Positions 933 through 15,899 of a stretch of DNA of 59,252 bases are shown here, in pieces. The stretch is from a virus: the IMG/VR virus record IMGVR_UViG_3300042975_000012. One strand, written 5' to 3'. Below the pieces are notes generated by a model. It worked only from the letters and a program-made list of their open reading frames with translations, did no database searches and had not been told where the DNA came from. Made by a program: the position numbers and the translations under genes. Every line of letters begins with the position of its first letter. Positions within the stretch are counted from its first letter, which is position 1.

Positions 933-3869
933 CTAATCATTGATACGGGCTATAGTTGATGCACTAACCTCCAACATGTCAGCGATGTCCGCCTGAGTAT
1001 AACCATTAGCCAACATAGACTTAGCTCTGGCTATCTTAGCATCACTCAGTCCTTGAGACTGATGGGGCATGGATAGTTCAGTAAGCTTATCTACATTAGC
1101 ATTGGCTACTATCTCTTTCATCATGTTGTTTGTAATAGCACCCGCCTGTATTGCTTCCCATTCAAGAGGGGTAATAGGATTATCTTTAGACCCTATATCT
1201 CTCTTAGATGCCCCTACATCTACACGAGCCTGGGCTAGGCATTGACCACGAAGTTTGCTCTTATGCTCACTATCCATGTTCTTGTTAGCCTCTAACTTTG
1301 TTTTATATACGGCATACCCGAGTGACTGTGCCTGCCGTTCAAGGGGCTTCTTGGAATAGGCCACCTTAATCTTAGCCCGTAGGCTTTCCACCTGGGGGGC
1401 ATACTTCTTAGCAGACTGGGGGGAGTATGTTAACTTAAGGGTGGGGTCTATCATAGCGAGACGGGCCTCGTTACCTAGAGCCTTTAACTTATTAGCATGC
1501 TCGGCATAGATGTTCTCTATAGGATAGTTTCCTTTAGAGATGAGGGTACGAGCATCTGTTGCTTCAGCCATCTTAGAGGACTTAGTCATACGTGTTATAG
1601 TACGTCCAGTCTTCTCCATAATAACTCTACCAGTCTTAGGGTTAATACGATCTGTCTTACGAAGCTCATCATAGGTAGAACCAGTATTACGATAGATGTA
1701 ACGTCCAGTCTTGGGATCTATAGGACCAACTGTCTTATAGTAGATCTTCTTACCAGTACGAGAATCTATCTTACCATCTGTCTCATTAACTTTCTGCAAT
1801 CGACGTTCAGGAATGAGGACCTGAGATTTTGCTTTAGAGATAAGAGTAGATGAACCATGCTTTGTTTTACCATTGGCACCAAGTCCATTATCCTGATACT
1901 CATTCTGAAGACTCTTGATATTAAGTTCAGTCTTAGCTCTACGATAATCAAGATTATGCTTGACCGCATCAATAACAACCATAGAATACTTAGTAGCTCG
2001 AGTTAGTTCCTCGGGACTGGCACCCTTGATTGTCATATCAGTAATAAGATTAGACGCGATACCCATTTCTTTCTGTTTAAACTTATCACCCATTGGTTTA
2101 GCTTTATAAACAGAAACTTTCTTTCCAGTCTTATCGGTTGTGTGACCGATAATAGGATTCGGATATGCATCTGATGGGTCAAAGTTCTTCAGTCCAGGTA
2201 GAGCAGGAGCAGTACGAAGGCCACGGTTGCCACCTTTGTTTGGAACTACAACTACAGAGTCACCATCGAAATCAGCACCAGAAAGCCGCTCAGCCACCTT
2301 ATGATTAATCCCCACCATATCTTTAGGATTCTTACCAACAGCTGCTATAGCAGGCTTAAACGTGTTATTAACAGTAAGTGTAGGAATCTCAAAGATACCA
2401 CCATGTGGGTAGCGAATAAGATTAACTACTTCACCATTCTGATAACCGGGTGCATATATTTCATTCTCCTTCATAGTGGGGAATGGAAGAATAACACGCT
2501 GACTTTGTCTTGGTAGAGCAGCAGCTTTCAAATGCACGGCATCCGAATCACAAGAATTTGAGAAGTTCTCTAACAATTTCTTTTTGATAACAGGATTTGT
2601 TAGTGAATTTATCTCATCAAATTGTGCACGCTTAATATCATAAGCTAATCCCAACTGACGTTTAGCTAAGACACTAGACTGTTTAGACAATACCTGTGAT
2701 GATATAGCTCGATGCCAATCACCCCAAGTACCTTCATCATTCACCTTATTCACTACAGCAAGATGGTCTTTACCATTCTTATCTTTGTAATGATATTGAC
2801 CGCCAGCCATGATAGTCGCACCGAATGGATTAGACATATCAATATCGCCAGCATCAGTCTTCTTCATAGGCTTGAGAACAGAACTATCTTTTCCACCAAG
2901 CATAGGAGTACCCTTATGCTTATTGGTATTGAATATAACATCGACACCAGGTGGGAAGTCAGCAGGGTCACCATACATGGCCATACCCTTAAGATAGTGG
3001 GTACCATCAACACCGATGCGAACCTGAGCATAATGGGATTTACCAAGTGATACATCGGCAACACCTGGTCTAATCTCCATTACACCATCTTTAGCTACGC
3101 CACCTTCTTCTGCATATCGAACTGATATACGCTTTGAAGATAAAGAAGTAGGAGGTTCAGCAGCCCAATAATCACCAGTACCATCTCTTTTATTAGTATG
3201 ACCGGGCAATGATATTTCATCTTGATGAGATATAACATCCTTATATGTAGTATCTGGTGGAGCAAGGACCTTTCGAGTGATAAACTTTCCAGGATTACCA
3301 AGTTCGGGAACCTTAACATAATGAACCGTATAACCTTGGTCCTTGAGCATGGTAATGGCTGAACTTAACTTGGTCGAAGATATCCCATATCCAACTTCAG
3401 TACCTTTACCGATGTCCAAATATGTTTTGGAATCGACATCAGCTTTGACTGCATCAACAGTCTTAGTGAGCTTGGCTTGCCTATCCTTATCATAAGGGAG
3501 CAGCATGTTGCGAACTGTACCACCAGAGACATTAAGTTGTTCAGCAATATTGTCAACCGAATATCCTTTAGCTTTCAGCTTAAGAACTTGATCGCGATTA
3601 TATTGCATCATATAATCTTTGCCAATAGTGGTGTTGTCCCGCAAATATGCGATAGGAACATCAAAATGTTCAGCTATTTGTTTCTCACTAAGACCCGATT
3701 TTTTCAAATCCTGAATCTGTTTATAAACGCCAGTATAATGTTGCGCAGCATCTTCACCAGACATCCAAGGAAATCTTCCAGAATGTGGAATAAGTCCTTC
3801 ATGCGGGCGCCCGGAATGTGCGATATAGTCATCTGACTCGTCTATCATATATAATTCGTCAGAAGTCAT
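933..3869 (-). CDS. Single-polypeptide two-barrel RNA polymerase candidate (YonO-like) with N-terminal and C-terminal HTH modules
   Basis: aa 484-545 VNLIRYPHGG...GINHKVAERLSGADFDGDSVVVVP matches the beta-prime catalytic DPBB (LNRAPTLHR...LHPLVxxAYNADFDGDQMAVHVP); DFDGD is encoded at 2259..2273. aa 284-320 GVDGTHYLKGMAMYGDPADFPPGVDVIFNTN resembles the beta DPBB (GRHGNKGV...EDMP...VDIVLNPL). HTH-like segments at aa 58-80, 101-123 and 955-977. ATG at 3869 has RBS AAGGA. Confidence 0.6.
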   Translation of the reverse strand: MTSDELYMIDESDDYIAHSGRPHEGLIPHSGRFPWMSGEDAAQHYTGVYKQIQDLKKSGLSEKQIAEHFDVPIAYLRDNTTIGKDYMMQYNRDQVLKLKAKGYSVDNIAEQLNVSGGTVRNMLLPYDKDRQAKLTKTVDAVKADVDSKTYLDIGKGTEVGYGISSTKLSSAITMLKDQGYTVHYVKVPELGNPGKFITRKVLAPPDTTYKDVISHQDEISLPGHTNKRDGTGDYWAAEPPTSLSSKRISVRYAEEGGVAKDGVMEIRPGVADVSLGKSHYAQVRIGVDGTHYLKGMAMYGDPADFPPGVDVIFNTNKHKGTPMLGGKDSSVLKPMKKTDAGDIDMSNPFGATIMAGGQYHYKDKNGKDHLAVVNKVNDEGTWGDWHRAISSQVLSKQSSVLAKRQLGLAYDIKRAQFDEINSLTNPVIKKKLLENFSNSCDSDAVHLKAAALPRQSQRVILPFPTMKENEIYAPGYQNGEVVNLIRYPHGGIFEIPTLTVNNTFKPAIAAVGKNPKDMVGINHKVAERLSGADFDGDSVVVVPNKGGNRGLRTAPALPGLKNFDPSDAYPNPIIGHTTDKTGKKVSVYKAKPMGDKFKQKEMGIASNLITDMTIKGASPEELTRATKYSMVVIDAVKHNLDYRRAKTELNIKSLQNEYQDNGLGANGKTKHGSSTLISKAKSQVLIPERRLQKVNETDGKIDSRTGKKIYYKTVGPIDPKTGRYIYRNTGSTYDELRKTDRINPKTGRVIMEKTGRTITRMTKSSKMAEATDARTLISKGNYPIENIYAEHANKLKALGNEARLAMIDPTLKLTYSPQSAKKYAPQVESLRAKIKVAYSKKPLERQAQSLGYAVYKTKLEANKNMDSEHKSKLRGQCLAQARVDVGASKRDIGSKDNPITPLEWEAIQAGAITNNMMKEIVANANVDKLTELSMPHQSQGLSDAKIARAKSMLANGYTQADIADMLEVSASTIARIND

Positions 3870-3886
3870 CAAGTATCCTTATGTAG

Positions 3887-4468
3887 TTATAAATCCAAAC
3901 CTTGGGTTGCTCGGATTTCTCGAATAAGTTTATCTTTAGAAATAATAGAGTCCATAAGATGTGCAATCTGGTCAACCGTAGGATGTTCTTCGCGAATCTG
4001 ATTGAACTGATAGATCCGAGTTGTGAATTTAAGAGCTCCCGGCTTAATATGGTATTCAAGACAGAACAATGCAGAGTAGATATACAGTTGCTCCATATGA
4101 CCATTAATCTTCAAACCGGTCTTTAAGTCCATAACAAGTAAATCATGTCGTTCAGGAATATAACGAATAGCATCTGCTGCACCAAAACAATATTCGGAAT
4201 AGAATAAGGTTACCTCCGATGCACAATCATAACGAAGTGAATCATTGACAAACATATTCAATGTCTGTTTTGTATTTGGTAACTTCTGACCCATCTTAAT
4301 AAGCATGGATGCTAGCTCATGTTGTTTGGTTCCATATTCCTTAGCTGCTTCTGAGTTGTACCAATCATAAAAGACAGCATCGTCCTTACCAGCCCATGTA
4401 TACTTACTAGGCGATAATATAGAATGTTTACCAGAAAGTTGCCCATGATAGTTAAATTCAAAAACCAT
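3887..4468 (-). CDS. PD-(D/E)XK nuclease, RecB/Cas4-like exonuclease
   Basis: Motifs GAADAI, VMDLKTG (D-x-K) and EQLYIYS (QxxxY). ATG at 4468 overlaps the upstream TGA. Confidence 0.55.
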   Translation of the reverse strand: MVFEFNYHGQLSGKHSILSPSKYTWAGKDDAVFYDWYNSEAAKEYGTKQHELASMLIKMGQKLPNTKQTLNMFVNDSLRYDCASEVTLFYSEYCFGAADAIRYIPERHDLLVMDLKTGLKINGHMEQLYIYSALFCLEYHIKPGALKFTTRIYQFNQIREEHPTVDQIAHLMDSIISKDKLIREIRATQGLDL

Positions 4469-4779
4469 CACAACACACCCTTATGATCAAAGTAATTACG
4501 AAGATCCATCAAGACTTGAGCTTCATTCTCTGGGTATATGAAAGATGCAAAAGCTCCAGTATCTTTAAAATGTTGAATATACCAATCCTGATTTGGTTGA
4601 TGGGGATCAGATGAGCTACGCTTCGCTTCGAGCATTGCAAAATATGGACCGACATAAATACTCAAGTCTGGAATGCCCTGAATATAATTAGGATCATTCT
4701 TTTCGACAAGACAATTTGGTATTAAATCCTCAATTCGTTCTATCAAATTCATTTGATAGTCGTTTTCAAGTCGAGCCAC
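4468..4779 (-). CDS. VRR-NUC-type nuclease (103 aa)
   Basis: GIPDLSIY...AMLEAKR is a PD...ExK signature with a downstream Q. GTG start with RBS AAAGGAA. Confidence 0.5.
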   Translation of the reverse strand: MARLENDYQMNLIERIEDLIPNCLVEKNDPNYIQGIPDLSIYVGPYFAMLEAKRSSSDPHQPNQDWYIQHFKDTGAFASFIYPENEAQVLMDLRNYFDHKGVL

Positions 4780-4813
4780 TTTTAGGTTCCTTTCGAAAAA
4801 ATGACAAATAAAG

Positions 4814-4850
4814 AGGGAGATGTGTGTTGTTTAAAACGGCGCATCTCCCT
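4814..4850 (-). terminator. Hairpin AGGGAGATG/CATCTCCCT plus T-rich tail directly downstream of a motif-A promoter
   Basis: 9-bp perfect arms at 4814..4822 and 4842..4850. The RC strand continues CTTTATTTGTCATTTTTT. Confidence 0.5.
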
Positions 4851-4854
4851 TTCT

Positions 4855-4879
4855 CTCTATTATACCCCATGTAATTTTT
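4855..4879 (-). promoter_or_regulatory. Motif A promoter-like element
   Basis: RC reads AAAAATTACATGGGGTATAATAGAG. Confidence 0.5.
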
Positions 4880-4884
4880 AGCGA

Positions 4885-4899
4885 ATATAGTGACTTTTT
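4885..4899 (-). promoter_or_regulatory. Motif B (AAAAAGTCACTATAT)
   Basis: RC reads AAAAAGTCACTATAT. One of 9-10 copies. Confidence 0.4.
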
Positions 4900-6477: not shown

Positions 6478-6499
6478 GATAATTCCTTTCATAGTTATT

Positions 6500-6523
6500 C
6501 TTCATTATATACTATGTAAAAAA
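6500..6523 (-). promoter_or_regulatory. Motif A promoter-like element
   Basis: RC reads TTTTTTACATAGTATATAATGAAG, then the leader and RBS of 6187..6477. Confidence 0.6.
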
Positions 6524-6547
6524 TAAAGAACAACTATGAAATATTGG

Positions 6548-6640
6548 TCAGTATGCAACCATTCCAATTAATATAGACCCGGTTATGAGTGCTATATCTT
6601 TCCATGGAATTTCAGATTTTTCTTCTTTCTGGTCATCCAT
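6548..6640 (-). CDS. Small membrane peptide (30 aa)
   Basis: RBS AAAGGAGAATACT then ATG. MDDQKEEKSEIPWKDIALITGSILIGMVAY has a C-terminal TM. The longer track ORF runs through the promoter and hairpin. Confidence 0.4.
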   Translation of the reverse strand: MDDQKEEKSEIPWKDIALITGSILIGMVAY

Positions 6641-6662
6641 AGTATTCTCCTTTCTAAAAAAA

Positions 6663-6710
6663 AAGAAGTCTATACACATCGTACAGTCACGATGTCCCAT
6701 AAACTTCTTC
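6663..6710 (-). ncRNA. Leader hairpin cassette without twin repeats (outer stem plus inner ACATCGT/ACGATGT stem) followed by a T9 run
   Basis: The outer 5' arm is the GAAGAAGT of motif A. The inner 7-bp stem is perfect. Confidence 0.4.
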
Positions 6711-6729
6711 ATTATACAACATGTAAAAA
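6707..6729 (-). promoter_or_regulatory. Motif A promoter-like element
   Basis: RC reads TTTTTACATGTTGTATAATGAAG. Confidence 0.55.
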
Positions 6730-6775
6730 TGTATACTCGCTCATCCAAAAAGGGCCCTCACATGCCTCTGAGAAG

Positions 6776-6878
6776 CACATAAAGGGCCCTTAGAGCGACT
6801 TTTAGGGTAACTACGATAGATTATTCATGTTTACTATTTGAGGTCCTTACAACGAAACCTCGTATCTAGTAACTTTTT
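6776..6878 (-). repeat. Dispersed ~105-bp non-coding repeat, copy 1 (partner 10014..10118)
   Basis: Shared blocks cacataaagggcccttagagcgacttttagg, gatagattattcat and aacctcgtatctagtRactttt. Confidence 0.8.
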
Positions 6879-6879
6879 C

Positions 6880-7725
6880 CTAAAAATTAGGATTATCCTT
6901 GATTTCTTCATAATCGAATTTGTCTTCACAGTTATCATCGAGCTTTTTCAAATATACATCAGCGATAGGCATAGCTTTCTCTACAATATCATCAGACATA
7001 GTATCGACAACCACATCTATGAGATTTACAAGCATTGCCTTCAACGATTTACGGGCTTCAGCATTATCATAGGGATGTTTATTTTCGAGAACCCTTTCCG
7101 GATATCGTTCGATAGCATGGATAGTAAAAGAATCATGCTCGTTAAAAACCAAATCAAACGCAACGCGATTAGTACTATACAGTTTTTTGAAATATGCCAG
7201 ATATTCAGGGGCCTGTTTCTTTGCAGCGTTCTTTGCATCAACGAAATGTGTATAGTCATTATAATATTTCTTAAATGCTAGAGATACCACACTCCATTCA
7301 CAGTTTTTGTTGCAATATCGCATATTGATTTCACTCTTATATACGCCATCTCCGCAGTAAATGACGTTAGGTTCAGCTTTAATATCACGTTCCTGAATAG
7401 AGTCCACAGGCTCCGAACTTTCATAGCTGTTTTTAGTATCAATAAAATCTAAAGCCTGTTGAATTATTGTTTGTGGCGATTGCAGTGTAGTGTATTGGTT
7501 CGATATCATAAATTGTGGAGCTCGTCTATAAATTGCTATGGTATAGTGATCTTCAAACTTGATAACCGGACTGATATAATAATTTCTATAAGTAATAAAG
7601 AAATTTCTAAAATACTCTTTGTTGATGTTAATCCACTGTCTCGAATCTATCAATGCAATCGACTTTGATGTACGATTGCTAATATCTCTAAAATACTTAC
7701 AATCCGAAGCCATATTGTCTTTCAT
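6880..7725 (-). CDS. Hypothetical protein (281 aa)
   Basis: Long ORF on the coding strand. No motif recognised. Confidence 0.6.
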   Translation of the reverse strand: MKDNMASDCKYFRDISNRTSKSIALIDSRQWININKEYFRNFFITYRNYYISPVIKFEDHYTIAIYRRAPQFMISNQYTTLQSPQTIIQQALDFIDTKNSYESSEPVDSIQERDIKAEPNVIYCGDGVYKSEINMRYCNKNCEWSVVSLAFKKYYNDYTHFVDAKNAAKKQAPEYLAYFKKLYSTNRVAFDLVFNEHDSFTIHAIERYPERVLENKHPYDNAEARKSLKAMLVNLIDVVVDTMSDDIVEKAMPIADVYLKKLDDNCEDKFDYEEIKDNPNF

Positions 7726-7782
7726 TATATACTCCTCTATGATATCAATATGCTGTATGATGCGATTCGTAACAAAACATTA

Positions 7783-7956
7783 TTACAAACCCTTTTTATA
7801 TATGTTATTCTGCAAATCTATAAGCTGGGCTGTTGATACACTCATAAAGCCAATACCAAATCCAGAAGCGACGATTGTTGATAAACCATATGATTTATCT
7901 GACTTTTCGCTTGATTTTTCTTCAGAGTCCTGAGTATCAAAAATACCGGTATCCAT
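7783..7956 (-). CDS. Small hypothetical protein (57 aa), below the ORF-track cutoff
   Basis: RBS AAGGAAGACT then ATG at 7956. Acidic N-terminus, hydrophobic GFGIGFMSV segment. Translated by hand. Confidence 0.35.
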   Translation of the reverse strand: MDTGIFDTQDSEEKSSEKSDKSYGLSTIVASGFGIGFMSVSTAQLIDLQNNIYKKGL

Positions 7957-7977
7957 AGTCTTCCTTATATAAAAGAA

Positions 7978-8172
7978 TCAACGTTTAATTTTTCTAAAAA
8001 CCAATGCTATCATTTCTGAAATCATAGTCCATATAACAATGATAATATTAACGAGTAGTGTTATTACAAAAATCAAGATTGGTGCTATAACCTTAACTGC
8101 TAGATATACGAATAGTATACCAACATCATATATGTTCCTTTCTGATTGAAAAATATCTTTATTATTGTGCAA
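7978..8172 (-). CDS. Small membrane protein (about 64 aa, start uncertain)
   Basis: Strongly hydrophobic ORF. The annotated TTG start lies inside the upstream terminator tail, so the true start is unclear. Confidence 0.3.
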   Translation of the reverse strand: MHNNKDIFQSERNIYDVGILFVYLAVKVIAPILIFVITLLVNIIIVIWTMISEMIALVFRKIKR

Positions 8173-8177
8173 AACAA

Positions 8178-8196
8178 GAAGGCCATGTAGACCTTC
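8178..8196 (-). terminator. Intrinsic terminator with conserved CTACATGG apex
   Basis: RC reads GAAGGTCTACATGGCCTTC followed by TTGTTTT. Confidence 0.6.
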
Positions 8197-8213
8197 CTGT
8201 TTTCGATAGATTA

Positions 8214-8498
8214 CTAGTTTATTCTTATCAAATGACTTGTTGTCATATCTTCCTCTGATATGGCAATGGAACCTCCAGACAACTCCACCATAAGATTGAT
8301 AAGATCAGCAACCTTATTATAGATTTCAATGTCTTCAGAACTCGCCTCAACATAGAAGACCTTCCTTATATCGGAAGGCATCCATGAATTGGTGAATGCG
8401 TCAACAGCTCTATTATAAGCTTCTGCGTTCTCAATGGATAGCGGAATATGGATGTCGGTACCACACCATGAATACATCGGTTGTACTTTTTTGGTCAT
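8214..8498 (-). CDS. Hypothetical protein (94 aa)
   Basis: The MKGIIM artefact is removed. Real ATG at 8498 after the AAAGGAATTATC leader. Confidence 0.6.
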   Translation of the reverse strand: MTKKVQPMYSWCGTDIHIPLSIENAEAYNRAVDAFTNSWMPSDIRKVFYVEASSEDIEIYNKVADLINLMVELSGGSIAISEEDMTTSHLIRIN

Positions 8499-8517
8499 GA
8501 TAATTCCTTTCATAGTT

Positions 8518-8540
8518 CTTCATTATACACCATGTAAATA
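8518..8540 (-). promoter_or_regulatory. Motif A promoter-like element
   Basis: RC reads TATTTACATGGTGTATAATGAAG. Confidence 0.55.
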
Positions 8541-8577
8541 TTACAATAACCATCGAGTACGGATCTCTAATATAATT

Positions 8578-8913
8578 CTACTCAGTGGTTAGATTGACAA
8601 TCTCATCAACAATAGTAGAACTGAGTCGTTCCTCACTCAATTTTCCATATCGAGCGATATTATAATCCATCTTACTATTTGAGAATGTGATCTCCCACAT
8701 ATATGTATCCCTTGGATTATCCTCTGCAACTAGAACCTTCCAACTTCCCAATACATATGCCGAGTTTATAACAAAGAAAGAGTTTAGATTCATATGCTCT
8801 TGAACGTGTGTTCCATATGAATCCTCAACCACGAAAGATGGCTGAATATTGAGAATATAGTCTCTATAGGCCAACTCGATTGCCAGATTCTCTTTAATAT
8901 CATTTTGCTTCAT
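8578..8913 (-). CDS. Hypothetical protein (111 aa)
   Basis: ORF on the coding strand with RBS AAAGGATATAATA then ATG. Confidence 0.6.
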   Translation of the reverse strand: MKQNDIKENLAIELAYRDYILNIQPSFVVEDSYGTHVQEHMNLNSFFVINSAYVLGSWKVLVAEDNPRDTYMWEITFSNSKMDYNIARYGKLSEERLSSTIVDEIVNLTTE

Positions 8914-8933
8914 TATTATATCCTTTTATTGTT

Positions 8934-8958
8934 CTTCATTATGTATCATATGAATATT
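8934..8958 (-). promoter_or_regulatory. Degenerate motif A
   Basis: RC reads AATATTCATATGATACATAATGAAG. Confidence 0.35.
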
Positions 8959-8985
8959 CTATATTCCTCACTCACAAAAGGCCCC

Positions 8986-9363
8986 TCAGATGCGTTTGAA
9001 ATGTAGTCCTCCGGCATCTGGTTTGATACCATTTATCTGCTGTGATATGGTTGAAGAACTCAGATCAAGTGCTTCTGCTGCTTTGTTCTGTGATGAATAT
9101 ACGTCTCCTGTTTCCAGGCACTGTACCACCCATGAAGGCGGTCCCTGACGACTGGATTCAACGGTATAGTTCAATACACCATTATTGATGGCGGGACTAG
9201 CAACGTTTTGGCTACCCATATCGATATCACCCATGGATATGCGGTCATCAATAGTGTTTTTACCAAGAATATAAGCACAAACACCAACTGCTACAACTAC
9301 TCCAGCTCCAATATACCACCACTTATATTGCTTCCAATGCTTCTTTATGGGTTCCTTGTCCAT
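8986..9363 (-). CDS. Membrane-anchored NUMOD1-like HTH protein, paralog 1 of 5
   Basis: Basic N-terminus, TM WWYIGAGVVVAVGVCAYILG, C-terminus VVQCLETGDVYSSQNKAAEALDLSSSTISQQINGIKPDAGGLHF. Confidence 0.6.
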   Translation of the reverse strand: MDKEPIKKHWKQYKWWYIGAGVVVAVGVCAYILGKNTIDDRISMGDIDMGSQNVASPAINNGVLNYTVESSRQGPPSWVVQCLETGDVYSSQNKAAEALDLSSSTISQQINGIKPDAGGLHFKRI

Positions 9364-9392
9364 GATGATTCCTTTCTAAAAAAAAAAAAAAA

Positions 9393-9471
9393 GAAGCAGA
9401 GTTTTTCTTAAGTCCGCGCAATGCTAGGCTTAACAAGTCCGCGCAATGCCAGGCTTGATTGTCTCGGCTTC
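9393..9471 (-). ncRNA. Twin-repeat hairpin cassette E7b (putative structured RNA or attenuator)
   Basis: Outer arms gaagcagag/ctcggcttc. 22-nt direct repeats aagtccgcgcaatgcYaggctt at 9410..9431 and 9435..9456. The RC strand ends in a T14 run (9378..9392). Confidence 0.4.
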
Positions 9472-9491
9472 ATTATAAAAAGATCTCCTCT

Positions 9492-9544
9492 CAAGTACGT
9501 ATTAGCACAAATACTTGACAAGTGCGTATTAGCACAAACACTTG
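9492..9544 (-). ncRNA. Twin hairpins E7a: two adjacent 26-nt stem-loops with identical loops
   Basis: caagtA-cgtattagcacaaa-Tacttg and caagtG-cgtattagcacaaa-Cacttg. The only two differences between the copies are compensatory. Confidence 0.5.
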
Positions 9545-9549
9545 ATAAT

Positions 9550-9575
9550 CCTTTCACTATAGACTATGTATTTTT
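9550..9575 (-). promoter_or_regulatory. Motif A variant (-10 TATAGT)
   Basis: RC reads AAAAATACATAGTCTATAGTGAAAGG. Confidence 0.45.
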
Positions 9576-9970
9576 TACGCAGCCATACAAATGCGCTCAA
9601 AATGGAGACCTCCAGCATTATCTCTTAATCCGTTAAGAGTTTTAGATATATCGTTTGGTGAAACATTAAGCGCCTCTGCTGCTTTACTCTGTGACGAGAA
9701 TACCTCACCCGTTTCAAGACAGCGAACCACCCACGAAGGCGGTCCTTGTCTGTCGGCCTCGACAGTGTAGTTGAGAGTGCCAAGATTGACCATTTGCTGG
9801 GGATCGTGGTTATCATTGCCAACACTCATATCAACCTTGATGTTTGGCGTCTTTTGTCTAGTTAATACATATACTCCAACACCTACTACGACTCCAACCA
9901 CAACTCCTACTCCAACAGTAATATAGGTCTGCTTATACTTCTCCCAATGTATTTTGATTTTCTCGTTCAT
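9575..9970 (-). CDS. Membrane-anchored NUMOD1-like HTH protein, paralog 2 of 5
   Basis: TM ITVGVGVVVGVVVGVGVYVL. C-terminus VVRCLETGEVFSSQSKAAEALNVSPNDISKTLNGLRDNAGGLHF. Confidence 0.6.
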   Translation of the reverse strand: MNEKIKIHWEKYKQTYITVGVGVVVGVVVGVGVYVLTRQKTPNIKVDMSVGNDNHDPQQMVNLGTLNYTVEADRQGPPSWVVRCLETGEVFSSQSKAAEALNVSPNDISKTLNGLRDNAGGLHFERICMAA

Positions 9971-10013
9971 AATATTCCTTTCATTAAATAACCTCTAGAA
10001 TGCCCCTCAGACG

Positions 10014-10118
10014 CACATAAAGGGCCCTTAGAGCGACTTTTAGGATACCTGTGATAGATTATTCATATGTGCGTTCTAAGAGCCTTAGAACACAACCTCG
10101 TATCTAGTGACTTTTCAC
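10014..10118 (-). repeat. Dispersed ~105-bp non-coding repeat, copy 2 (partner 6776..6878)
   Basis: Same conserved blocks as copy 1. Contains the motif-B-like AAAAGTCACTAGATAC on the RC strand. Confidence 0.8.
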
Positions 10119-10191
10119 TAAATATACTCGGTTTTCGATCAAAAGCTCGACTCAATCAATACTCATAAGCGTTCCTTTCCATATAACAACA

Positions 10192-10725
10192 TCACTCAAA
10201 TATGCGAATCCATTTCGAGCTATTGAGATTCGTAGTCACTGTTGTTGCAAAATCATCAGGCCATGTATGATCGCTTTGCGCTTTCACACATTTTGCCATC
10301 AACTGTCCTTTATCATTGAATGCAGAATATACATGGTAGCCATGATCCGTGTAGATTCGAGATATACAAGTCGTTCCCAAATGGTTACCCGCCATTAAGA
10401 AGAATGCCATTTTGTCCATATCATTGGTTGGTATACATACCGTTTCGAATATATCCTGATCAATGGCATTATACACACTCCAAGTACCTATAGTTGCCGA
10501 TAGGCTCCGACGATGCTTGTCCGCATAATCAGGACTATCCAATGATGGCATCGGTCCAAAATAAATAGTATTGAAGGGTGGCTCATTCCTCTTGAATATA
10601 GTAGGATTATTAGTAATGGTCTCTGACAGAACATGCATAACATTTTGAATAATCATAGATACAGGTATATTTGTCGTCCTGCTAATTCGTTGAGAGAGTT
10701 CATTTGAATATGACAGTTTGGTCAT
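10192..10725 (-). CDS. Hypothetical protein (177 aa)
   Basis: ORF on the coding strand with RBS AAAGGAACAATT then ATG. Confidence 0.6.
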   Translation of the reverse strand: MTKLSYSNELSQRISRTTNIPVSMIIQNVMHVLSETITNNPTIFKRNEPPFNTIYFGPMPSLDSPDYADKHRRSLSATIGTWSVYNAIDQDIFETVCIPTNDMDKMAFFLMAGNHLGTTCISRIYTDHGYHVYSAFNDKGQLMAKCVKAQSDHTWPDDFATTVTTNLNSSKWIRIFE

Positions 10726-10737
10726 AATTGTTCCTTT

Positions 10738-10953
10738 CTATACTTCTAAAATAGTTTTCCATACACCATAATATACATCGGTATCTATAGAAAATGTAGC
10801 GGTCTCCTGACATTTCCTACAGGATACTGTTGCTTCGCTGTAGACGTTATCTATCTTATACATATCGATAATATGAATACTAGCATGTGGGTGATTGCAA
10901 GGCAGTTGCTGCTTTGCTTTGGTGTATAGTGTTTTTTCACAATCGTTCATCAT
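10738..10953 (-). CDS. Small Cys-rich protein (71 aa)
   Basis: C..H and CRKC pairs. ATGA overlap with the upstream gene. Confidence 0.5.
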   Translation of the reverse strand: MMNDCEKTLYTKAKQQLPCNHPHASIHIIDMYKIDNVYSEATVSCRKCQETATFSIDTDVYYGVWKTILEV

Positions 10954-11294
10954 ATTCTTAACTTCCCTGATACGTTAGTGTATTGACCGAATGGATTTTT
11001 ATTGTCTTTATCATTAATAGAATCAACACGTTTATTCCAAATATCAATCGCATTGTCGAGTATTTCATAAACGGTATATAGTTTACTATACTCATTATTA
11101 ATAGTAAGACAACCGTTTTCACATGCTAGTGTAATATCAACAATATCAACAGTAGCATCATTCCATGGTTGGTCTCTGGTAGATAGATCAAAATTATATA
11201 TTGGTACTTCATGACAATATGGACATGGATGCATCCTATGTATGAGTTCATTCAGAGGATTAAAACGTTTTGGTGTATGGTCTTCGTGCTCCAT
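10950..11294 (-). CDS. Lar-family-like zinc-ribbon protein (possible restriction alleviation)
   Basis: HPCPYCH ... CENGC ... AIDIWNKR matches the CPxC/CxxC/WNxR layout of Lar proteins. Real start is ATG 11294 behind AAAGGAGTTTATT; the track ORF extends upstream through a leader. Confidence 0.4.
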   Translation of the reverse strand: MEHEDHTPKRFNPLNELIHRMHPCPYCHEVPIYNFDLSTRDQPWNDATVDIVDITLACENGCLTINNEYSKLYTVYEILDNAIDIWNKRVDSINDKDNKNPFGQYTNVSGKLRI

Positions 11295-11406
11295 AATAAA
11301 CTCCTTTATATTTGGATATAACCCTTGACATGGAATTTCATAGTCTTTAATGTATCTATTGTTCCATTTTGTTGTTTGTTCATATCGTGTTCCTTTCACA
11401 AAAAAT

Positions 11407-11431
11407 ATAAAGCGCCATGTAGACGCTTTAT
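11407..11431 (-). terminator. Intrinsic terminator with CTACATGG apex
   Basis: RC reads ATAAAGCGTCTACATGGCGCTTTAT then ATTTTTT, running directly into the next RBS with no promoter between. Confidence 0.65.
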
Positions 11432-11645
11432 AGGTAATACTTACTTAAAAGTTTCTGGGAATTTCCCATATTTGCTATAATACTTCAGGAGTTTACGTCC
11501 TTGATACCTAAGCTTTGCATTTACCATCTATTCCTTGGTTTGATTCAAAGGATGTTCTGCATGTGCAATGTCCTTGCATATAAAGATGAACTTCTTGATA
11601 ATATTAGTTTCAGGCATGATAGTTCCTTTCAAAATTTACTTCTAT

Positions 11646-11669
11646 ATCATTATATAGTATGCAGTTTTT
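11646..11669 (-). promoter_or_regulatory. Motif A variant
   Basis: RC reads AAAAACTGCATACTATATAATGAT. Confidence 0.4.
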
Positions 11670-11682
11670 GAAAAAAAGAGAG

Positions 11683-11775
11683 GAAGAAGTTGTATAGTTT
11701 TTAAATCCTAAAGTTAGCCCAATTACTCACCATAGGTCACGAGCCTAATTACTCGTTTTTCTATACAACTTCTTC
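11683..11775 (-). ncRNA. Twin-repeat hairpin cassette E3
   Basis: Perfect 15-bp outer arms gaagaagttgtatag/ctatacaacttcttc. Repeats agccYaattactc at 11716..11728 and 11742..11754. Inner ccta/tagg pairing. T-run on the RC strand. Confidence 0.45.
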
Positions 11776-11795
11776 ATTATATGACATGTAAAAAA
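11772..11795 (-). promoter_or_regulatory. Motif A promoter-like element
   Basis: RC reads TTTTTTACATGTCATATAATGAAG. Confidence 0.55.
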
Positions 11796-11799
11796 TGTA

Positions 11800-11892
11800 T
11801 CACGAACAACTTGCACCAGTAATGTAGTATTCTTTATATGTATGTAAATGCTTCTTAATCTTATCAAGATTAGTTTGGTTGTTGTCATCCAT
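11800..11892 (-). CDS. Mini-ORF (30 aa)
   Basis: Motif B, then RBS GAGGAGTAATT, then ATG. MDDNNQTNLDKIKKHLHTYKEYYITGASCS, translated by hand. Confidence 0.3.
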   Translation of the reverse strand: MDDNNQTNLDKIKKHLHTYKEYYITGASCS

Positions 11893-11907
11893 AATTACTC
11901 CTCAATA

Positions 11908-11922
11908 ATATAGTGACTTTTT
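11908..11922 (-). promoter_or_regulatory. Motif B
   Basis: RC reads AAAAAGTCACTATAT, 17 nt before the ATG. Confidence 0.4.
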
Positions 11923-11928
11923 ATAAAA

Positions 11929-11953
11929 ATAAAGCGCCATGTAGACGCTTTAT
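11929..11953 (-). terminator. Intrinsic terminator with CTACATGG apex
   Basis: Identical sequence to 11407..11431. Confidence 0.65.
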
Positions 11954-11956
11954 CTT

Positions 11957-12190
11957 TTACTTAACTCGTTCAGTTATACCATTCTTCATAACTTGGTGTT
12001 CTCCAGTTTTAGTATTCACTAGATGATATGCACCCCCATCATCTACGTAGTCCTTAGTATTTTGCAGTGTATCATTGCTTCCTGCGAATGACAGCAGAAA
12101 ACCGATACAAGCAATAGCCCCAATACCGCATATAGTGTGGATGATTATCTTTACTAGTGAATCTTTTAGAGATTTCTTTGCCTTAGACAT
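11957..12190 (-). CDS. Small membrane protein (77 aa)
   Basis: TM IIIHTICGIGAIACIGFLLSFAG. RBS GAAAGGATTATC. Confidence 0.55.
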   Translation of the reverse strand: MSKAKKSLKDSLVKIIIHTICGIGAIACIGFLLSFAGSNDTLQNTKDYVDDGGAYHLVNTKTGEHQVMKNGITERVK

Positions 12191-12209
12191 GATAATCCTT
12201 TCTTAGTTG

Positions 12210-12233
12210 TTTCACTATACACCATGTAAAAAA
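12210..12233 (-). promoter_or_regulatory. Motif A variant (-10 TATAGT)
   Basis: RC reads TTTTTTACATGGTGTATAGTGAAA. Confidence 0.5.
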
Positions 12234-12257
12234 TAGAGCGCCATGTAGACGCTCTAT
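12233..12257 (-). terminator. Intrinsic terminator with CTACATGG apex
   Basis: RC reads ATAGAGCGTCTACATGGCGCTCTAT then TTTTTT. Confidence 0.65.
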
Positions 12258-12263
12258 AGTTTA

Positions 12264-12545
12264 TTAGTCTTCAGAAACAATATTATCTGAAATACGATTT
12301 ATCATATAGTCTTGATAGTCATCAACAAGTCCTTTATCGTTAAGAAATTCGTTAAAATCATTTATTTTTTCCTGCAATGATATATTATTCAACGTTAATC
12401 CGACTGCTGCTCCTGCGACAATTACACTTGGAATTGAAACTGCTGCAACAACAATAGTCTTTTTGTTTCTAGTATACCAATCAGAAATTTTAGATTTGAT
12501 CGATTTCTTATCTTCAACGACTGTAAATTCAATATTTTCCGACAT
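12264..12545 (-). CDS. Single-pass membrane protein (93 aa), paralog of 29251..29550
   Basis: Shared layout: basic segment, TM, then L..GL.DDY..Y.I..I. Confidence 0.55.
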   Translation of the reverse strand: MSENIEFTVVEDKKSIKSKISDWYTRNKKTIVVAAVSIPSVIVAGAAVGLTLNNISLQEKINDFNEFLNDKGLVDDYQDYMINRISDNIVSED

Positions 12546-12571
12546 GATAGATTCCTTTCATTAATCTATTA

Positions 12572-12595
12572 CTTCATTATAGCGTATGTAAAAAA
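12572..12595 (-). promoter_or_regulatory. Motif A promoter-like element
   Basis: RC reads TTTTTTACATACGCTATAATGAAG. Confidence 0.55.
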
Positions 12596-12610
12596 TATAC
12601 TGAGTGAAAA

Positions 12611-12635
12611 ATAGAGGACCATGTAGATCCTCTAT
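12611..12635 (-). terminator. Intrinsic terminator with CTACATGG apex
   Basis: RC reads ATAGAGGATCTACATGGTCCTCTAT then TTTT. Confidence 0.65.
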
Positions 12636-12662
12636 TTGTTAATTACTACTCTTGTCGTTATG

Positions 12663-12953
12663 TCATCCCAGTTTTGGAATAAAGCCAAACGCTTTTGTTC
12701 CGATAACGTTCTCCTTTTCGAAGTTCATAATAGTGCCAATAGCCATCAATGTTCCTGCAACACTTACCGATTTGATAGTGAGTTCTTTCAAGAAAGCTCT
12801 TTTATCTGCTTTCAATTTATAATACTTCATTATCTGATCAGTAATTCGTGCATACTCATCTGAGTCTGTTGGTTTCGTATCTAGTTCTTCGAACAGACGT
12901 TCGATTTCGTGATCAACGAACGATTGCTTTGTTCCAATATTAGGTAATTTCAT
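12663..12953 (-). CDS. Hypothetical protein (96 aa) with C-terminal hydrophobic segment
   Basis: Real start is MKLPNIG behind the conserved leader CTATGAAAGGAACATT. Confidence 0.55.
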   Translation of the reverse strand: MKLPNIGTKQSFVDHEIERLFEELDTKPTDSDEYARITDQIMKYYKLKADKRAFLKELTIKSVSVAGTLMAIGTIMNFEKENVIGTKAFGFIPKLG

Positions 12954-12971
12954 AATGTTCCTTTCATAGTT

Positions 12972-12994
12972 GTTCATTATAGCCGATGTAAAAA
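12972..12994 (-). promoter_or_regulatory. Motif A promoter-like element
   Basis: RC reads TTTTTACATCGGCTATAATGAAC. Confidence 0.5.
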
Positions 12995-13021
12995 TTATTC
13001 ATAATGTACAACCTACAAATA

Positions 13022-13390
13022 TCACGTTCTTAGCTTATGGAAATATACGAACAACTCTAGTTCTGCAATCATATCCTTGATATTTCCAGTTCGAAGTTCA
13101 CTCCAAATATTGCCAAGACCCAGCCAATCATTATCTTCAAGAAGTTTAAGCCCCGATTGGATCTGTGAAACATGAGTTACTAAATATGATGTCATTTCCA
13201 GATTGAGATGCTCGGCATACCACAATGCTTTCTTCAGATCTGTTTCAGGATACTCCTTATTCTGCCATCGATACAAATACTTAACCATACTACCAGTTGT
13301 GAAATCCATATATTTAGTAATTTCATAACACTCAATCGGTCCATCAGTATAGTGTGAAGGATGGTTTACGATGTCATTGACCTCCGACAT
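13022..13390 (-). CDS. DUF3310-like phage protein
   Basis: HPSHYTDGPIECYEI...GSMVKYLYRWQNK...DLKKALWYAEHL matches the DUF3310 signature recalled from memory. Confidence 0.5.
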   Translation of the reverse strand: MSEVNDIVNHPSHYTDGPIECYEITKYMDFTTGSMVKYLYRWQNKEYPETDLKKALWYAEHLNLEMTSYLVTHVSQIQSGLKLLEDNDWLGLGNIWSELRTGNIKDMIAELELFVYFHKLRT

Positions 13391-13498
13391 GTCATACTCC
13401 TTAGTGTAGTTTTCTAAACAGTAGATATAGCAAATTCAATCCACCTGTGCATACAGTTAATAGTAGATCGATTAAAAATCGTCCTAATCCATAATGTT

Positions 13499-13909
13499 TC
13501 ATAGTGTATTCTCCTTATTCATGAGATTTTGTATTTCTTCAACACTCATTGGTCGCATGAAAATATGCATGACTTTGAAATATCGATGAAGTTTCTTGGA
13601 ACTCTTGAGTCCATCTTTCTCATTAATAACCTGTTTAAGGAAATGATGTAATACAGCTTCGCCAATTTTCCCACCACGGATTTTTTGCTTAAGCGTATAT
13701 CGAGTAAGTTGCATAGATTCCTGTGGCGTATCAGTACGGTCTTTGATAATACCAATAACTACTCCAATAAATAGCATCAAAGCCGCTACACCGATAATAA
13801 ACAGCGATATACTACTATGCATGATTGCATATGCGAACATAACCACTACTCCAATGATATCAATGAACATCAGCGATATAAGTTCTATAAATCGGTCTTT
13901 ATTATACAT
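13499..13909 (-). CDS. Membrane protein (136 aa, two TM segments)
   Basis: Hydrophobic N-terminal half. TAATG overlap with the upstream gene. Confidence 0.55.
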   Translation of the reverse strand: MYNKDRFIELISLMFIDIIGVVVMFAYAIMHSSISLFIIGVAALMLFIGVVIGIIKDRTDTPQESMQLTRYTLKQKIRGGKIGEAVLHHFLKQVINEKDGLKSSKKLHRYFKVMHIFMRPMSVEEIQNLMNKENTL

Positions 13910-14100
13910 TATTGTTCCTTTTCTTGTATATATTGCTGCAAATATGTCAGATTTGAGGCAACAGTATTAATTAGATTCTCAGAATCCTTAAGTCGACGTT
14001 TCTCAAATACATCTGATGTATCGCCTTGTGCATCTCGTAATGCTTGTTTAAGGTTCATGACTTTCAGTTGAAGTTGTGATATAGTATTAAATGTAATCAT
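13909..14100 (-). CDS. Hypothetical coiled-coil protein (63 aa)
   Basis: ATG at 14100 overlaps the end of 14087..14371. The longer track ORF would overlap by 62 nt. Confidence 0.45.
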   Translation of the reverse strand: MITFNTISQLQLKVMNLKQALRDAQGDTSDVFEKRRLKDSENLINTVASNLTYLQQYIQEKEQ

Positions 14101-14371
14101 CGCCAAAAGTCTTTCTGATAAGCGTACGGATACTTCTATGAGATTCATGATTGTTAGCTCGCAGTTTCACGCTAGTCCATACTGCGTCGGAAACCGTTCG
14201 TGAATAATATGGTTTAATGTACTTCTTCGTCTTTCTATTACGAATAAGACCTATTGGATTTATCTCATAGTTTTCGAAATCTTCGATGACTCGCCATTCT
14301 CGATTATCATGATGTGCCATCAATTCCAAATATACATCTTTATCCACATTAAGTATCTGTTTGATCTTCAT
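14087..14371 (-). CDS. NUMOD4-only protein (homing-endonuclease DNA-binding module without nuclease)
   Basis: WRVIEDFENYEINPIGLIRNRKTKKYIKP. Confidence 0.4.
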   Translation of the reverse strand: MKIKQILNVDKDVYLELMAHHDNREWRVIEDFENYEINPIGLIRNRKTKKYIKPYYSRTVSDAVWTSVKLRANNHESHRSIRTLIRKTFGDDYI

Positions 14372-14694
14372 TGTACTCTCTCAGTGCTTAATTGAAGGAT
14401 CTTATGTTGACTCTTCAGATATACATGATAAAGTGTCGCGCTGTTGTACCTTATACTATAATGAACAATGTAGAATTCTCCATTATCCATTTGAAAAGAA
14501 AAAGACATAGCTTCTTTGGGCTTATCGTCGAGCATATAATCTTCAAATATATAATTGACATGACACTCGAATTGCGGATAAAAACTAATTAGTTGACGAA
14601 GTAGTGTATCTCTACGTTCTGTCTCTTTCTTTTCCCGCCATTCAGTTCGGTATAGACTTCTGTCTAATAATATGCTAGTCGGTCGAATCGCCAT
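14368..14694 (-). CDS. Hypothetical protein (108 aa)
   Basis: ORF translationally coupled to its neighbours. Confidence 0.55.
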   Translation of the reverse strand: MAIRPTSILLDRSLYRTEWREKKETERRDTLLRQLISFYPQFECHVNYIFEDYMLDDKPKEAMSFSFQMDNGEFYIVHYSIRYNSATLYHVYLKSQHKILQLSTERVQ

Positions 14695-14966
14695 TATAAA
14701 TCCTCCGGTGTATAAACTTCAGTCTTCATAACTTCAGTGACTGTAAATATATCATGTCTTTTGTTGTATTCAACGGATATAGCACGATTCTCGTAATCGA
14801 ATCGTGAATCATACTCTTTATAAACAATGAGCCATGCATTATCGTCAGTATTGAAAACTCGAACGTTATACATGTCCTTACAGAACTGTTGTTTATCAAG
14901 ATAATGGTGATGTGGATTATGGTTGCATAGATACTGATATGCTGCTTCAAGAATCAATACGTCCAT
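14694..14966 (-). CDS. Hypothetical protein (90 aa), tandem paralog of 14947..15273
   Basis: MDVLILEAAYQYL.../MDDLVLAAVYSYM... and shared ...LFTVQEI/IFTVTEV... Confidence 0.55.
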   Translation of the reverse strand: MDVLILEAAYQYLCNHNPHHHYLDKQQFCKDMYNVRVFNTDDNAWLIVYKEYDSRFDYENRAISVEYNKRHDIFTVTEVMKTEVYTPEDL

Positions 14967-15273
14967 GGTCTCTTCCTTCGGTATAATCTTCTATAAGTTC
15001 GGCTGTTGAATAAGTAGTTGATGGTAGAATTTCCTGAACTGTGAACAAGTCATTGTTCATATGAGAAAGATAAGTCACACAGAAAGTTCTAATAACGCCA
15101 TTCTGAGATCCTACGACTTCATAGTCATTGTAGAAACATAACCATTCATCATGGTCTATTTCTCGAATTTTTACCACTTGCTTGAAATAATCAAATGGCA
15201 CATCTCGAGAATATCCATAATTATCACTACTATTCATATAACTATAAACAGCAGCCAATACCAAGTCATCCAT
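14947..15273 (-). CDS. Hypothetical protein (108 aa), tandem paralog of 14694..14966
   Basis: See partner. RBS AAAGGAACAAATT. Confidence 0.55.
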   Translation of the reverse strand: MDDLVLAAVYSYMNSSDNYGYSRDVPFDYFKQVVKIREIDHDEWLCFYNDYEVVGSQNGVIRTFCVTYLSHMNNDLFTVQEILPSTTYSTAELIEDYTEGRDHGRIDS

Positions 15274-15289
15274 AATTTGTTCCTTTACA

Positions 15290-15304
15290 ATATAGTGACT
15301 TTTT
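15290..15304 (-). promoter_or_regulatory. Motif B
   Basis: RC reads AAAAAGTCACTATAT within TTTACAA...TTGTAAA flanks. Confidence 0.4.
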
Positions 15305-15317
15305 TGTAAAAAATAAA

Positions 15318-15432: not shown

Positions 15433-15436
15433 TGTA

Positions 15437-15886: not shown

Positions 15887-15899
15887 TGTAAAAAATAAA

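Follow-up and report, generated by a model that had tools for sequence, protein, structure and literature searches.

The locus and its predicted polymerase gene

We analyzed a 59,252-nucleotide stretch of viral DNA (IMG/VR record IMGVR_UViG_3300042975_000012; hereafter, the window), which corresponds to a single siphovirus genome unit, read here along its minus strand, and focused on a gene near its low-coordinate end whose product is predicted to be a single-chain RNA polymerase with two double-psi beta-barrels and helix-turn-helix (HTH) modules at both ends. In the direction of reading, the genome begins with an HNH endonuclease, the large terminase, the portal, a protease-capsid fusion, tail genes, and an endolysin (59 to 32 kb), continues with a cluster of small genes (31 to 27.5 kb) and a replication block comprising a primase-polymerase fusion, a single-strand annealing protein (SSAP), a dCTP deaminase, and a helicase (27 to 17 kb), and proceeds through more small genes to its right end, where an endonuclease, a Cas4-like exonuclease, the polymerase, and a small open reading frame (ORF) of PHROG 4303 follow one another. 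Within the polymerase ORF (Table 1), a ribosome-binding site (RBS), AAGGA, sits six bases before an ATG at 3869 in AAGGATACTTGATG (AAGGA-N6-ATG), and this ATG is therefore probably the true start, which would give a gene at 933..3869 and a product of 978 residues. The original prediction had placed the ORF at 933-3869, which is a real frame, but its residue numbers are one too high for that end; we number residues here, as it did, in the 979-residue frame that starts from the upstream TTG. The peptides that it quoted all occur in the ORF, among them VNLIRYPHGG...GINHKVAERLSGADFDGDSVVVVP and RIGVDGTHYLKGMAMYGDPADFPPGVDVIFNTN, the first of these two beginning at aa 483 rather than 484.

The gene is a correct rediscovery, in a new genome, of a known and biochemically uncharacterized family. 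Its product matches PHROG 4291 ("RNA-dependent RNA polymerase") over aa 24-976 and profile positions 14-903 of 909 (E = 0, 1031.6 bits), and a tblastn search returned 250 phage genomes with a full-length homolog (at least 80% coverage, 35-45% identity), drawn from phages of Arthrobacter, Gordonia, Streptomyces, Rhodococcus, Microbacterium, and Curtobacterium as well as from Lactococcus phages (the 1706 group), Faecalibacterium phages, and human oral or gut siphoviruses. Annotators have named these homologs "HTH DNA-binding domain protein" or "RNA-dependent RNA polymerase." No close relative at the DNA level was found among sequenced phages, and the nearest proteins are metagenomic (98-75% identity). 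A word-indexed search of large protein collections yielded at least 8000 homologous clusters, and an exhaustive search with the core only gave 1135 clusters at 50% identity (651 of them at E ≤ 1e-30), the core always lying at about residues 220-660 in proteins 900-1050 aa long. Ruprich-Robert and Thuriaux (2010) named five YonO-like families, one of them represented by the protein of phage 1706. For a family alignment of the actinophage/Lactococcus/Faecalibacterium group, Koert et al. (bioRxiv 842583, 2021) reported an HHpred match of 95.7% to the Pfam model for RNA-dependent RNA polymerases (RdRP), described HTH domains at the two termini as well as a DxDGD loop, and suggested RNA polymerase activity; promoters are nowhere mentioned there. 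The original prediction hence implied more novelty than there is, as publications and annotations already cover the family with its DxDGD motif and terminal HTHs. What we add is a promoter-like motif of ~20 copies, its recurrence in distant relatives, and a hint of virion association from the database label of the phage 1706 homolog.

The order endonuclease, Cas4-like exonuclease, polymerase, PHROG 4303 ORF, genome end is common to the window and to phages 1706, CHPC971, Circum, Scap1, and ReqiPepy6, and in many IMG/VR contigs the polymerase gene lies a few hundred bases from the contig end. The two ends of the window are identical over 211 bp (1-211 = 59042-59252). Because they cut through an ORF (starting at 151/59192), we rejected a true direct terminal repeat in favor of an assembly overlap next to a cos-like element. 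This G-rich element (GGGGGGAGGGGTC...CATCGCGGCGCTCC, about 190-300) precedes the palindrome CCTCCGGAGG and a T-run; it is kept in distant relatives, coincides with the physical right end of the linear genome of Lactococcus phage CHPC971, and is the probable cos site. The polymerase gene lies about 0.7 kb from this right cos end and therefore adjoins the packaging genes only after end joining, so that the earlier placement of the gene "just ahead of" the packaging module holds across the joined genome ends and not within the linear unit. Between the polymerase stop and the PHROG 4303 ORF lies a 342-nt AT-rich noncoding spacer (591-932) with about 17 TACTAT/TAGTAT-type hexamers (ACTAT occurs 11 times vs. 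about 1 expected), which could be iterons, binding sites, or promoters; it is missing in the relatives compared, where the small ORF directly follows the polymerase gene.

Predicted fold, conserved residues, and HTH modules

The full-length AlphaFold model was mediocre (pLDDT 67.7, pTM 0.38) and gave no significant Foldseek hit, its weak best matches being the large subunits of RNA polymerase (RNAP) and RDR2. When the core was remodeled alone (aa 235-665, with a 42-sequence alignment), the model reached a pLDDT of 84.9 and a pTM of 0.77, and Foldseek searches of the PDB matched it to QDE-1 (E 2.2e-7 to 1.8e-6, prob 1.0, TMq 0.43-0.44, about 540 columns), to RDR2 (E 1.6e-5), and to gp62, the non-virion RNA polymerase of Thermus phage P74-26 (E 3.2e-5), all three being aligned at prob 1.0 over about 450-560 columns. 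Matches to beta-prime/Rpb1-type chains were local (about 145 columns, rmsd 3-6 Å, E 0.003-0.1). In BFVD, the core model matched RNAP subunits of nudiviruses and poxviruses as well as further phage entries named "RdRP," with weak matches to crAss-like proteins (E 0.05); YonO was not among its top 50 matches there. In this model, the catalytic core (aa ~235-665) runs from a beta-like barrel through connector helices to a beta-prime-like barrel. The two-barrel reading of the original prediction, with an intact DxDGD in the same chain, is thus supported by structure prediction and by the invariance of the signature, and the Foldseek comparison that it had named, against QDE-1 and RpoC-type barrels, gave matches to both.

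Conservation was read from alignments of 20 and of 42 diverse homologs, the latter 46-93% identical to the query core. R487, P489, H490, D534, D536, and D538 are unchanged in both alignments, as are the first-barrel residues D262, Y281, Q283, R285, K295, G296, D311, and K318. Ruprich-Robert and Thuriaux (2010) described eight universal residues, of which two Lys and one Asp belong to the beta-like barrel; by alignment, the invariant R285, K295, K318, K334, D262, and D311 are the candidates for these here. Strands of the first barrel were modeled at aa 249-252, 264-267, 281-288, 292-299, and 312-315 with pLDDT >90, and the structural alignments with QDE-1 include this region. The second barrel (pLDDT about 90) was matched by Foldseek to beta-prime/Rpb1 barrels with prob 0.96-0.99, and its DFDGD codons, read directly, lie at the positions originally given. 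An "almost residue for residue" agreement with beta-prime had been claimed as well, but only the order of the motifs agrees, because R-x-P and the first Asp are 47 residues apart here versus 35 in Escherichia coli beta-prime. H524, the His that precedes the first Asp by 10 residues and had been offered as a further beta-prime-like feature, occupies a position that varies among H, P, S, and A in the family. Beyond the catalytic barrel, a conserved helical pair (modeled as helices 596-615 and 620-639) carries M603, G604, N608, L609, D612, M613, D635, K638, and H639, all invariant in the 20 sequences, and is in register with IGEISNNITK of YonO.

The HTH domains gave the only above-threshold Pfam matches in the protein. 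Of the three modules originally proposed, those at aa 95-124 and 941-977 are robust, the latter being modeled as three short helices (944-955, 960-967, and 971-978), whereas the first is weak: its Pfam hits cover aa 53-77, it appears as a tandem repeat with the second module in profile hits to designed helical repeats, and its model helices lie at 42-58 and 63-69. Nearer the N terminus, within a region modeled as disordered (pLDDT 24-40 for aa 1-40), a conserved peptide holds H19, G21, S31, G32, R33, S38, and G39, which are invariant in the 20 sequences; one may speculate that it serves as an interaction, packaging, or ejection signal. The HTH-only Pfam profile, together with the SEA-PHAGES name "helix-turn-helix DNA-binding domain protein," would fit a mere DNA-binding regulator or virion component in which the polymerase core is an inactive relic. 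We find this scarcely credible, given that the catalytic triad, R-x-P, and many core residues are invariant down to 46% identity and that about 1,100 clusters retain the architecture, as expected of an enzyme whose activity is maintained by purifying selection.

A promoter-like motif in the window and in distant relatives

A scan of the whole window for TTTACAT-N4-TATAAT-GAAGAA returned 18 matches at ≤3 mismatches, all on the minus (coding) strand, where 0.06 were expected; with weaker copies counted, there are about 20 sites between 4853 and 31113, again on the minus strand. They are confined to 4.8-16.5 kb and 27.5-31.1 kb, ahead of early/middle genes and of the polymerase operon, and for many genes the TATAAT ends 22-30 nt before the start codon. 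The same scan found no copy in the 27-kb structural module (32-59 kb). Two upstream subtypes can be told apart, TACATTTTTTACAT at 6-16.5 kb and TACAAAAATTACAT at 27.5-31 kb, and a second TACA occurs about nine bases upstream. The copies have neither a -35 hexamer at 16-18 bp nor the TGn of an extended -10, and two-hexamer sigma-70 sites show no excess within 1-17 kb (85 vs. 77 ± 10). Terminators are enriched in this interval, and some run straight into the next TTTTTACAT; seven terminator-like hairpins in the window form a family with a conserved loop (minus strand AAAGCGTCTACATGGCGCTTT, then a T-run), several members of which enter the TTTTTACAT of the next promoter copy directly, as terminator-promoter cassettes. 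A further hairpin, in the leader between the operon promoter and the endonuclease start, folds as RNA at -20.8 kcal/mol (z = -3.2; 0 of 200 shuffles were as stable) and may be an attenuator; a comparable hairpin/T-run follows the conserved element in relatives, by inspection of their sequences.

A related element, CTCGCAnGnAAAACATnGnnTATAATAGAAGGGA, lies upstream of the polymerase-ending operon in 24 relatives with a locus GC of 0.31-0.59, directly before the endonuclease in most of them; phages of Lactococcus, Rhodococcus, Arthrobacter, and Streptomyces are among these relatives, and neither the TCGCA element nor the position had been specified in the search. Phage 1706 carries TTTTACA-N5-TATAGTAGA 12 times (vs. 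0.16 expected) at 24-46.5 kb on the coding strand, all beyond the structural module, and ReqiPepy6, in a whole-genome scan with a narrower pattern only, carries TCGCA-N6-ACAC-N4-TATAATGA 14 times (vs. 0.00 expected) at 38.9-48.8 kb on the coding strand, plus the operon copy. The shared architecture is ACA(T/C)-N4-TATA(A/G)T-RRA, and the parts foreign to sigma promoters (ACAT at -20..-17, TCGCA near -30, and RRA after the hexamer) recur in both Firmicute phages and phages of high-GC Actinobacteria. The conserved stretch continues past TATAAT, a trait known from the promoters that single-subunit phage polymerases use. Because the motif is common to phages of both phyla and conserved beyond the hexamer, a conserved phage-encoded reader would explain it more easily than host sigma factors would, and the HTH-bearing polymerase suggests itself as the obvious candidate. 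Other repeated words from the relatives were discarded as promoters: the k-mers ATATTTGG, TTATATTC, TGATATTT, and others like them, from 80 related loci, lie inside coding sequence without conserved flanks and were set aside as codon-usage artifacts, and repeats of the TGCCAGTTTT type look, from the k-mers, like 3' halves of terminator hairpins.

Where two unrelated promoter motifs had originally been described, we found one promoter-like family with two upstream subtypes. A second, unrelated promoter motif was sought in this genome and none was found, the other repeats being terminator hairpins, RBS-plus-start segments, tape-measure repeats, and paralogous gene ends. At 30055-30121, two motif copies stand head to head (TTCTTCATTAT...TTTACATATTCTATAATGAAGAA on the minus strand, a weaker mirror on the plus strand), which may mean divergent or antisense transcription; other plus-strand look-alikes occur at 15301 and 15883, and all long ORFs are on the minus strand. 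Repeats of 147-200 nt lie 3' of several promoter copies (15455-15601, 16023-16169, and 30242-30388; 15710-15910 and 16266-16466) and may be paralogous small genes or long conserved leaders.

Several further repeats lie in the structural half of the window. The tape measure gene (2460 aa) contains five tandem 150-nt repeats at 42115-43014 (72-92% identity to the reference copy, with overlapping reported boundaries) and six copies of a 49-nt segment at 43774-44920, spaced by 183 nt or multiples thereof. On either side of the large terminase lie ORFs, four in all, with a common 77-88-nt 5' segment (73-98% identity; 54105-54206, 54645-54746, 56889-56990, and 57564-57640), and their N termini are therefore paralogous; the two of them that were scanned, 56534-56971 and 56990-57661, match several PHROGs of unknown function, one with an acetyltransferase-like region. 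Between the PHROG 4259 ORF and the ORF that comes first after cos, inspection of the minus strand at 58790-58935 revealed a long, imperfect inverted repeat, AAACCATCCAGTGCATACA...TGTATGCACTGGATGGTTT, which encloses a second pair, AGCAAATAC/GTATTTGCT. Rfam returned no known RNA family in the whole window.

Table 1. Coordinates of the polymerase gene, its predicted domains, and the associated regulatory features in the window.
Feature	Position	Strand	Details
Two-barrel polymerase gene (predicted)	933..3872	minus	979 aa from TTG at 3872 (ORF listing)
N-terminal peptide, aa 19-41	3750..3818	minus	H-x-G...HSGR(Y/F)PWxSGE; conserved, in region modeled as disordered
First HTH-like unit, aa 53-80	3633..3716	minus	weak Pfam hits: DUF7626 0.002, HTH_SB 0.08
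Second HTH, sigma region 4/LuxR-like, aa 95-124	3501..3590	minus	HTH_23 3.4e-10, HTH_7 7e-10, Sigma70_r4_2 1e-8, GerE 5e-8
First (beta-subunit-like) barrel region, aa ~245-320	2913..3140	minus	invariant YAQVRIxVDGTHYLKGMAMY + FNTNK
Second (beta-prime-like) barrel, aa ~455-545	2238..2510	minus	invariant R487-x-P489-H490, S-G-A-D534-F-D536-G-D538
DFDGD metal-binding signature (putative)	2259..2273	minus	direct reading; invariant in 42 homologs
Conserved helical pair after catalytic barrel, aa 596-660	1893..2087	minus	MGxxSNLITDMTIKGA...MVVIDAxKHNL
C-terminal HTH, aa 941-977	942..1052	minus	Pfam HTH_38 4.8e-10, Sigma70_r4 5e-5, HTH_3 2e-4
Upstream operon genes	3887..4779	minus	endonuclease 4468-4779, Cas4/RecB-like exonuclease 3887-4471 (PHROG 93, PHROG 3953)
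Leader hairpin + U-rich tract	4775..4852	minus	between operon promoter and endonuclease start
Promoter-like element of nuclease-polymerase operon	4834..4894	minus	TTCGCtaaaaATTACATGGGGTATAATAGAGAG; motif variant at 4853-4875
Eleven motif copies	6498..16541	minus	TTTACAT-N4-TATAAT-GAAGAA
5' (high-coordinate) ends, eleven copies	6520, 6727, 8538, 8954, 11792, 12230, 12592, 12992, 15429, 15997, 16541	minus	
Eight motif copies	27560..31113	minus	subtype TACAAAAATTACAT-N4-TATAATGAAGAA
5' (high-coordinate) ends, eight copies	27582, 28484, 29195, 29606, 30094, 30218, 30770, 31113	minus	
Seven terminator-like hairpins	11402-11438, 11924-11960, 12228-12264, 12606-12642, 16445-16481, 27297-27333, 29216-29252		

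Proposed function and comparison with known polymerases

We consider it probable that the ~978-residue protein is the phage's own DNA-dependent RNA polymerase, a single-subunit two-barrel enzyme guided by its HTH modules to promoters of the motif type. The sigma-region-4-like HTH modules would then stand in for a sigma factor in promoter finding, with the ~20 co-oriented copies of (TACA-N5)-TTACAT-N4-TATAAT-GAAGAA as the best candidate promoters. More speculatively, the virion might carry a few copies of the enzyme, which would initiate transcription independently of the host polymerase; the late module would then depend either on transcripts reading through the joined genome ends or on a different polymerase. 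In GenBank EU081845, the homolog in phage 1706 (orf75) is labeled "structural protein," a label given to 11 ORFs, with the rest marked "unknown" or "putative ..."; the ReqiPepy6 record repeats it. By analogy, this label hints at virion delivery of the homolog, and if the enzyme were virion-delivered, the puzzle of a motif on the polymerase's own operon would be resolved. A broader version of the proposal, which we hold as a tentative possibility, envisages a widespread siphovirus lineage (hosts: Lactococcus, gut or oral Firmicutes, Streptomyces, Arthrobacter, Gordonia, and Rhodococcus) with a virion-delivered, sigma-independent two-barrel polymerase whose tandem HTHs would read a ~30-bp cross-phylum promoter, (T)CGCA-N6-7-ACA(T/C)-N4-TATA(A/G)T-RRA, making early/middle transcription independent of the host.

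Several points weigh against a phage-encoded reader of the motif and against the polymerase assignment itself. The sequence links to characterized enzymes are weak: the sole Pfam match on the core, RdRP PF05183 (aa 525-644), stays below threshold (11.5 bits vs. a cutoff of 23.8, E 0.11), PDB sequence searches with the protein and with a 20-sequence profile matched only HTH proteins and designed repeats, and hhalign of the family profile gave Prob 0.7% against the YonO sequence and Prob 0.4% (E 0.16) against a 20-sequence YonO profile, the latter alignment covering the catalytic region only, in register. In the literature searched, we found no assay of any member of the PHROG 4291 family. The whole-protein model, which would place the HTHs relative to the active site, is poor (pTM 0.38). 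The motif core is TATAAT, the universal sigma-70 -10 hexamer, so the host polymerase stays in play as a reader, and the polymerase's own operon carries the motif, so that its expression would need the host enzyme as a reader or polymerase that is already present. For the late module, no promoter was identified. Finally, "structural protein" is a database label on a 35%-identical homolog, which the current RefSeq has renamed.

The main rival concerns mechanism only. In it, host sigma-A would read the TATAAT motifs, perhaps helped by a phage factor, and the phage enzyme, itself an early or middle product of host transcription, would transcribe the long, promoter-less late module (packaging, structure, lysis), either starting near the joined genome ends or reading across them. 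Host reading of all copies is the simplest account of a motif shared by the polymerase operon and the other nonstructural genes, the more so as TATAAT is the sigma-70 consensus and the 27-kb structural module has no copies. After end joining, moreover, the gene stands directly upstream of the packaging genes, like yonO before the SPbeta terminase/portal operon, and YonO itself transcribes SPbeta late genes in the account given in PMC5467207. We nevertheless judge this scheme unlikely. The motif has no -35 hexamer and no extended -10, two-hexamer sites in 1-17 kb occur at chance frequency, Firmicute phages and phages of high-GC Actinobacteria have the non-sigma parts of the motif in common, the terminator-like palindrome CCTCCGGAGG with its T-run separates the polymerase operon from the late genes, and the 1706 homolog carries the structural label.

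Another role for the protein would lie outside transcription, in making RNA primers for (recombination-dependent) replication or in copying RNA, in keeping with the database name "RNA-dependent RNA polymerase." The polymerase gene always occurs in linkage with a helicase, an SSAP, an endonuclease, and a Cas4-like exonuclease, the nearest solved folds, QDE-1 and RDR2, copy RNA or single-stranded DNA (as given in PMC9508822), and the TACTAT-rich spacer after the gene is iteron-like. This seems to us quite improbable, however, as the phage already has a primase-polymerase fusion (PHROG 4210, with primase-domain hits) and, as a double-stranded DNA siphovirus, no known need for RNA copying, the spacer is missing in relatives, and three DNA-binding modules with a family-wide promoter-like motif suit promoter-directed transcription better.

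For this genome alone, the gene is ordinary, one more member of its family, and its interest comes from the family, the candidate promoter, and the virion link. Single-subunit two-barrel RNA polymerases are rare as experimental models (YonO, crAss-like gp66, and P23-45 gp64/gp96), and such enzymes inform the evolution of the cellular multisubunit RNA polymerase and the idea of a minimal transcription machine. The PHROG 4291-type family is far more abundant than these models, with about 1,100 clusters and hundreds of cultured phages on tractable hosts, and the candidate promoter, its conservation from Firmicute to actinobacterial phages, and the virion hint make its function directly testable. 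If the broader proposal of a virion-delivered, sigma-independent enzyme is true, the protein would be the first of the two-barrel class to combine polymerase and sigma-like promoter recognition in one chain, and a positive outcome would provide a compact promoter-specific polymerase without partner proteins, of biotechnological interest.

The closest known system is the phage 1706 gp75/actinophage family itself (PHROG 4291; clusters AM, AU, BI, DJ, CC, and others; Faecalibacterium phage FP_oengus), with which the protein shares 35-45% identity over 97-100% of its length, an arrangement of two HTHs, two-barrel core, and one further HTH, a gene location at the right end of the genome between the endonuclease-exonuclease pair and the small PHROG 4303 ORF, and a related promoter-like element upstream; the phage differs in its own 342-nt repeat-rich spacer 3' of the gene and its own motif flavor, TATAAT-GAAGAA. 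QDE-1 of Neurospora and plant RDR2 are the best structural matches of the predicted core (E 2e-7 to 4e-4, prob 1.0, roughly 400-560 columns, both barrels) and likewise carry a DxDGD catalytic loop in a single chain, but they are only 10-14% identical, have no HTH modules, and act in RNA silencing rather than in phage gene expression. YonO, from the temperate phage SPbeta of about 134 kb, is also a single chain (about 100 kDa) of the same superfamily, with RxPH, DxDGD, and G..SN.IT in matching order and register, a resemblance without statistical support; the label "YonO-like" hence holds at the level of class, not of significant sequence kinship (Prob 0.4%, E 0.16). The yonO gene lies directly upstream of the SPbeta terminase/portal operon, a setting comparable here only after end joining, and the YonO family has no HTH Pfam domain on record, whereas the PHROG 4291-type family always has HTHs.

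The Thermus phage enzymes, P23-45 gp64/P74-26 gp62 (non-virion) and gp96 (a tape-measure-fused virion polymerase), are siphovirus single-subunit two-barrel RNA polymerases that each read their own conserved promoter motif, the virion-borne enzyme starting the infection (PMC10770324). They differ in having no HTH domains, no detectable sequence similarity, and other promoters, and virion association, a property of gp96, is here a hint from a homolog's database label. With gp66 of crAss-like phage phi14:2 and the virion polymerase of phage N4, the proposed enzyme would share the concept of delivery with the DNA for early genes at phage-specific promoters. The gp66 protein is two-barrel, as here, but far larger and encoded within the structural block, and the N4 enzyme has a T7-like fold; neither has sigma-4-like HTH modules. 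Among the two-barrel models, it is only in the PHROG 4291-type family that such HTHs are fused at both ends.

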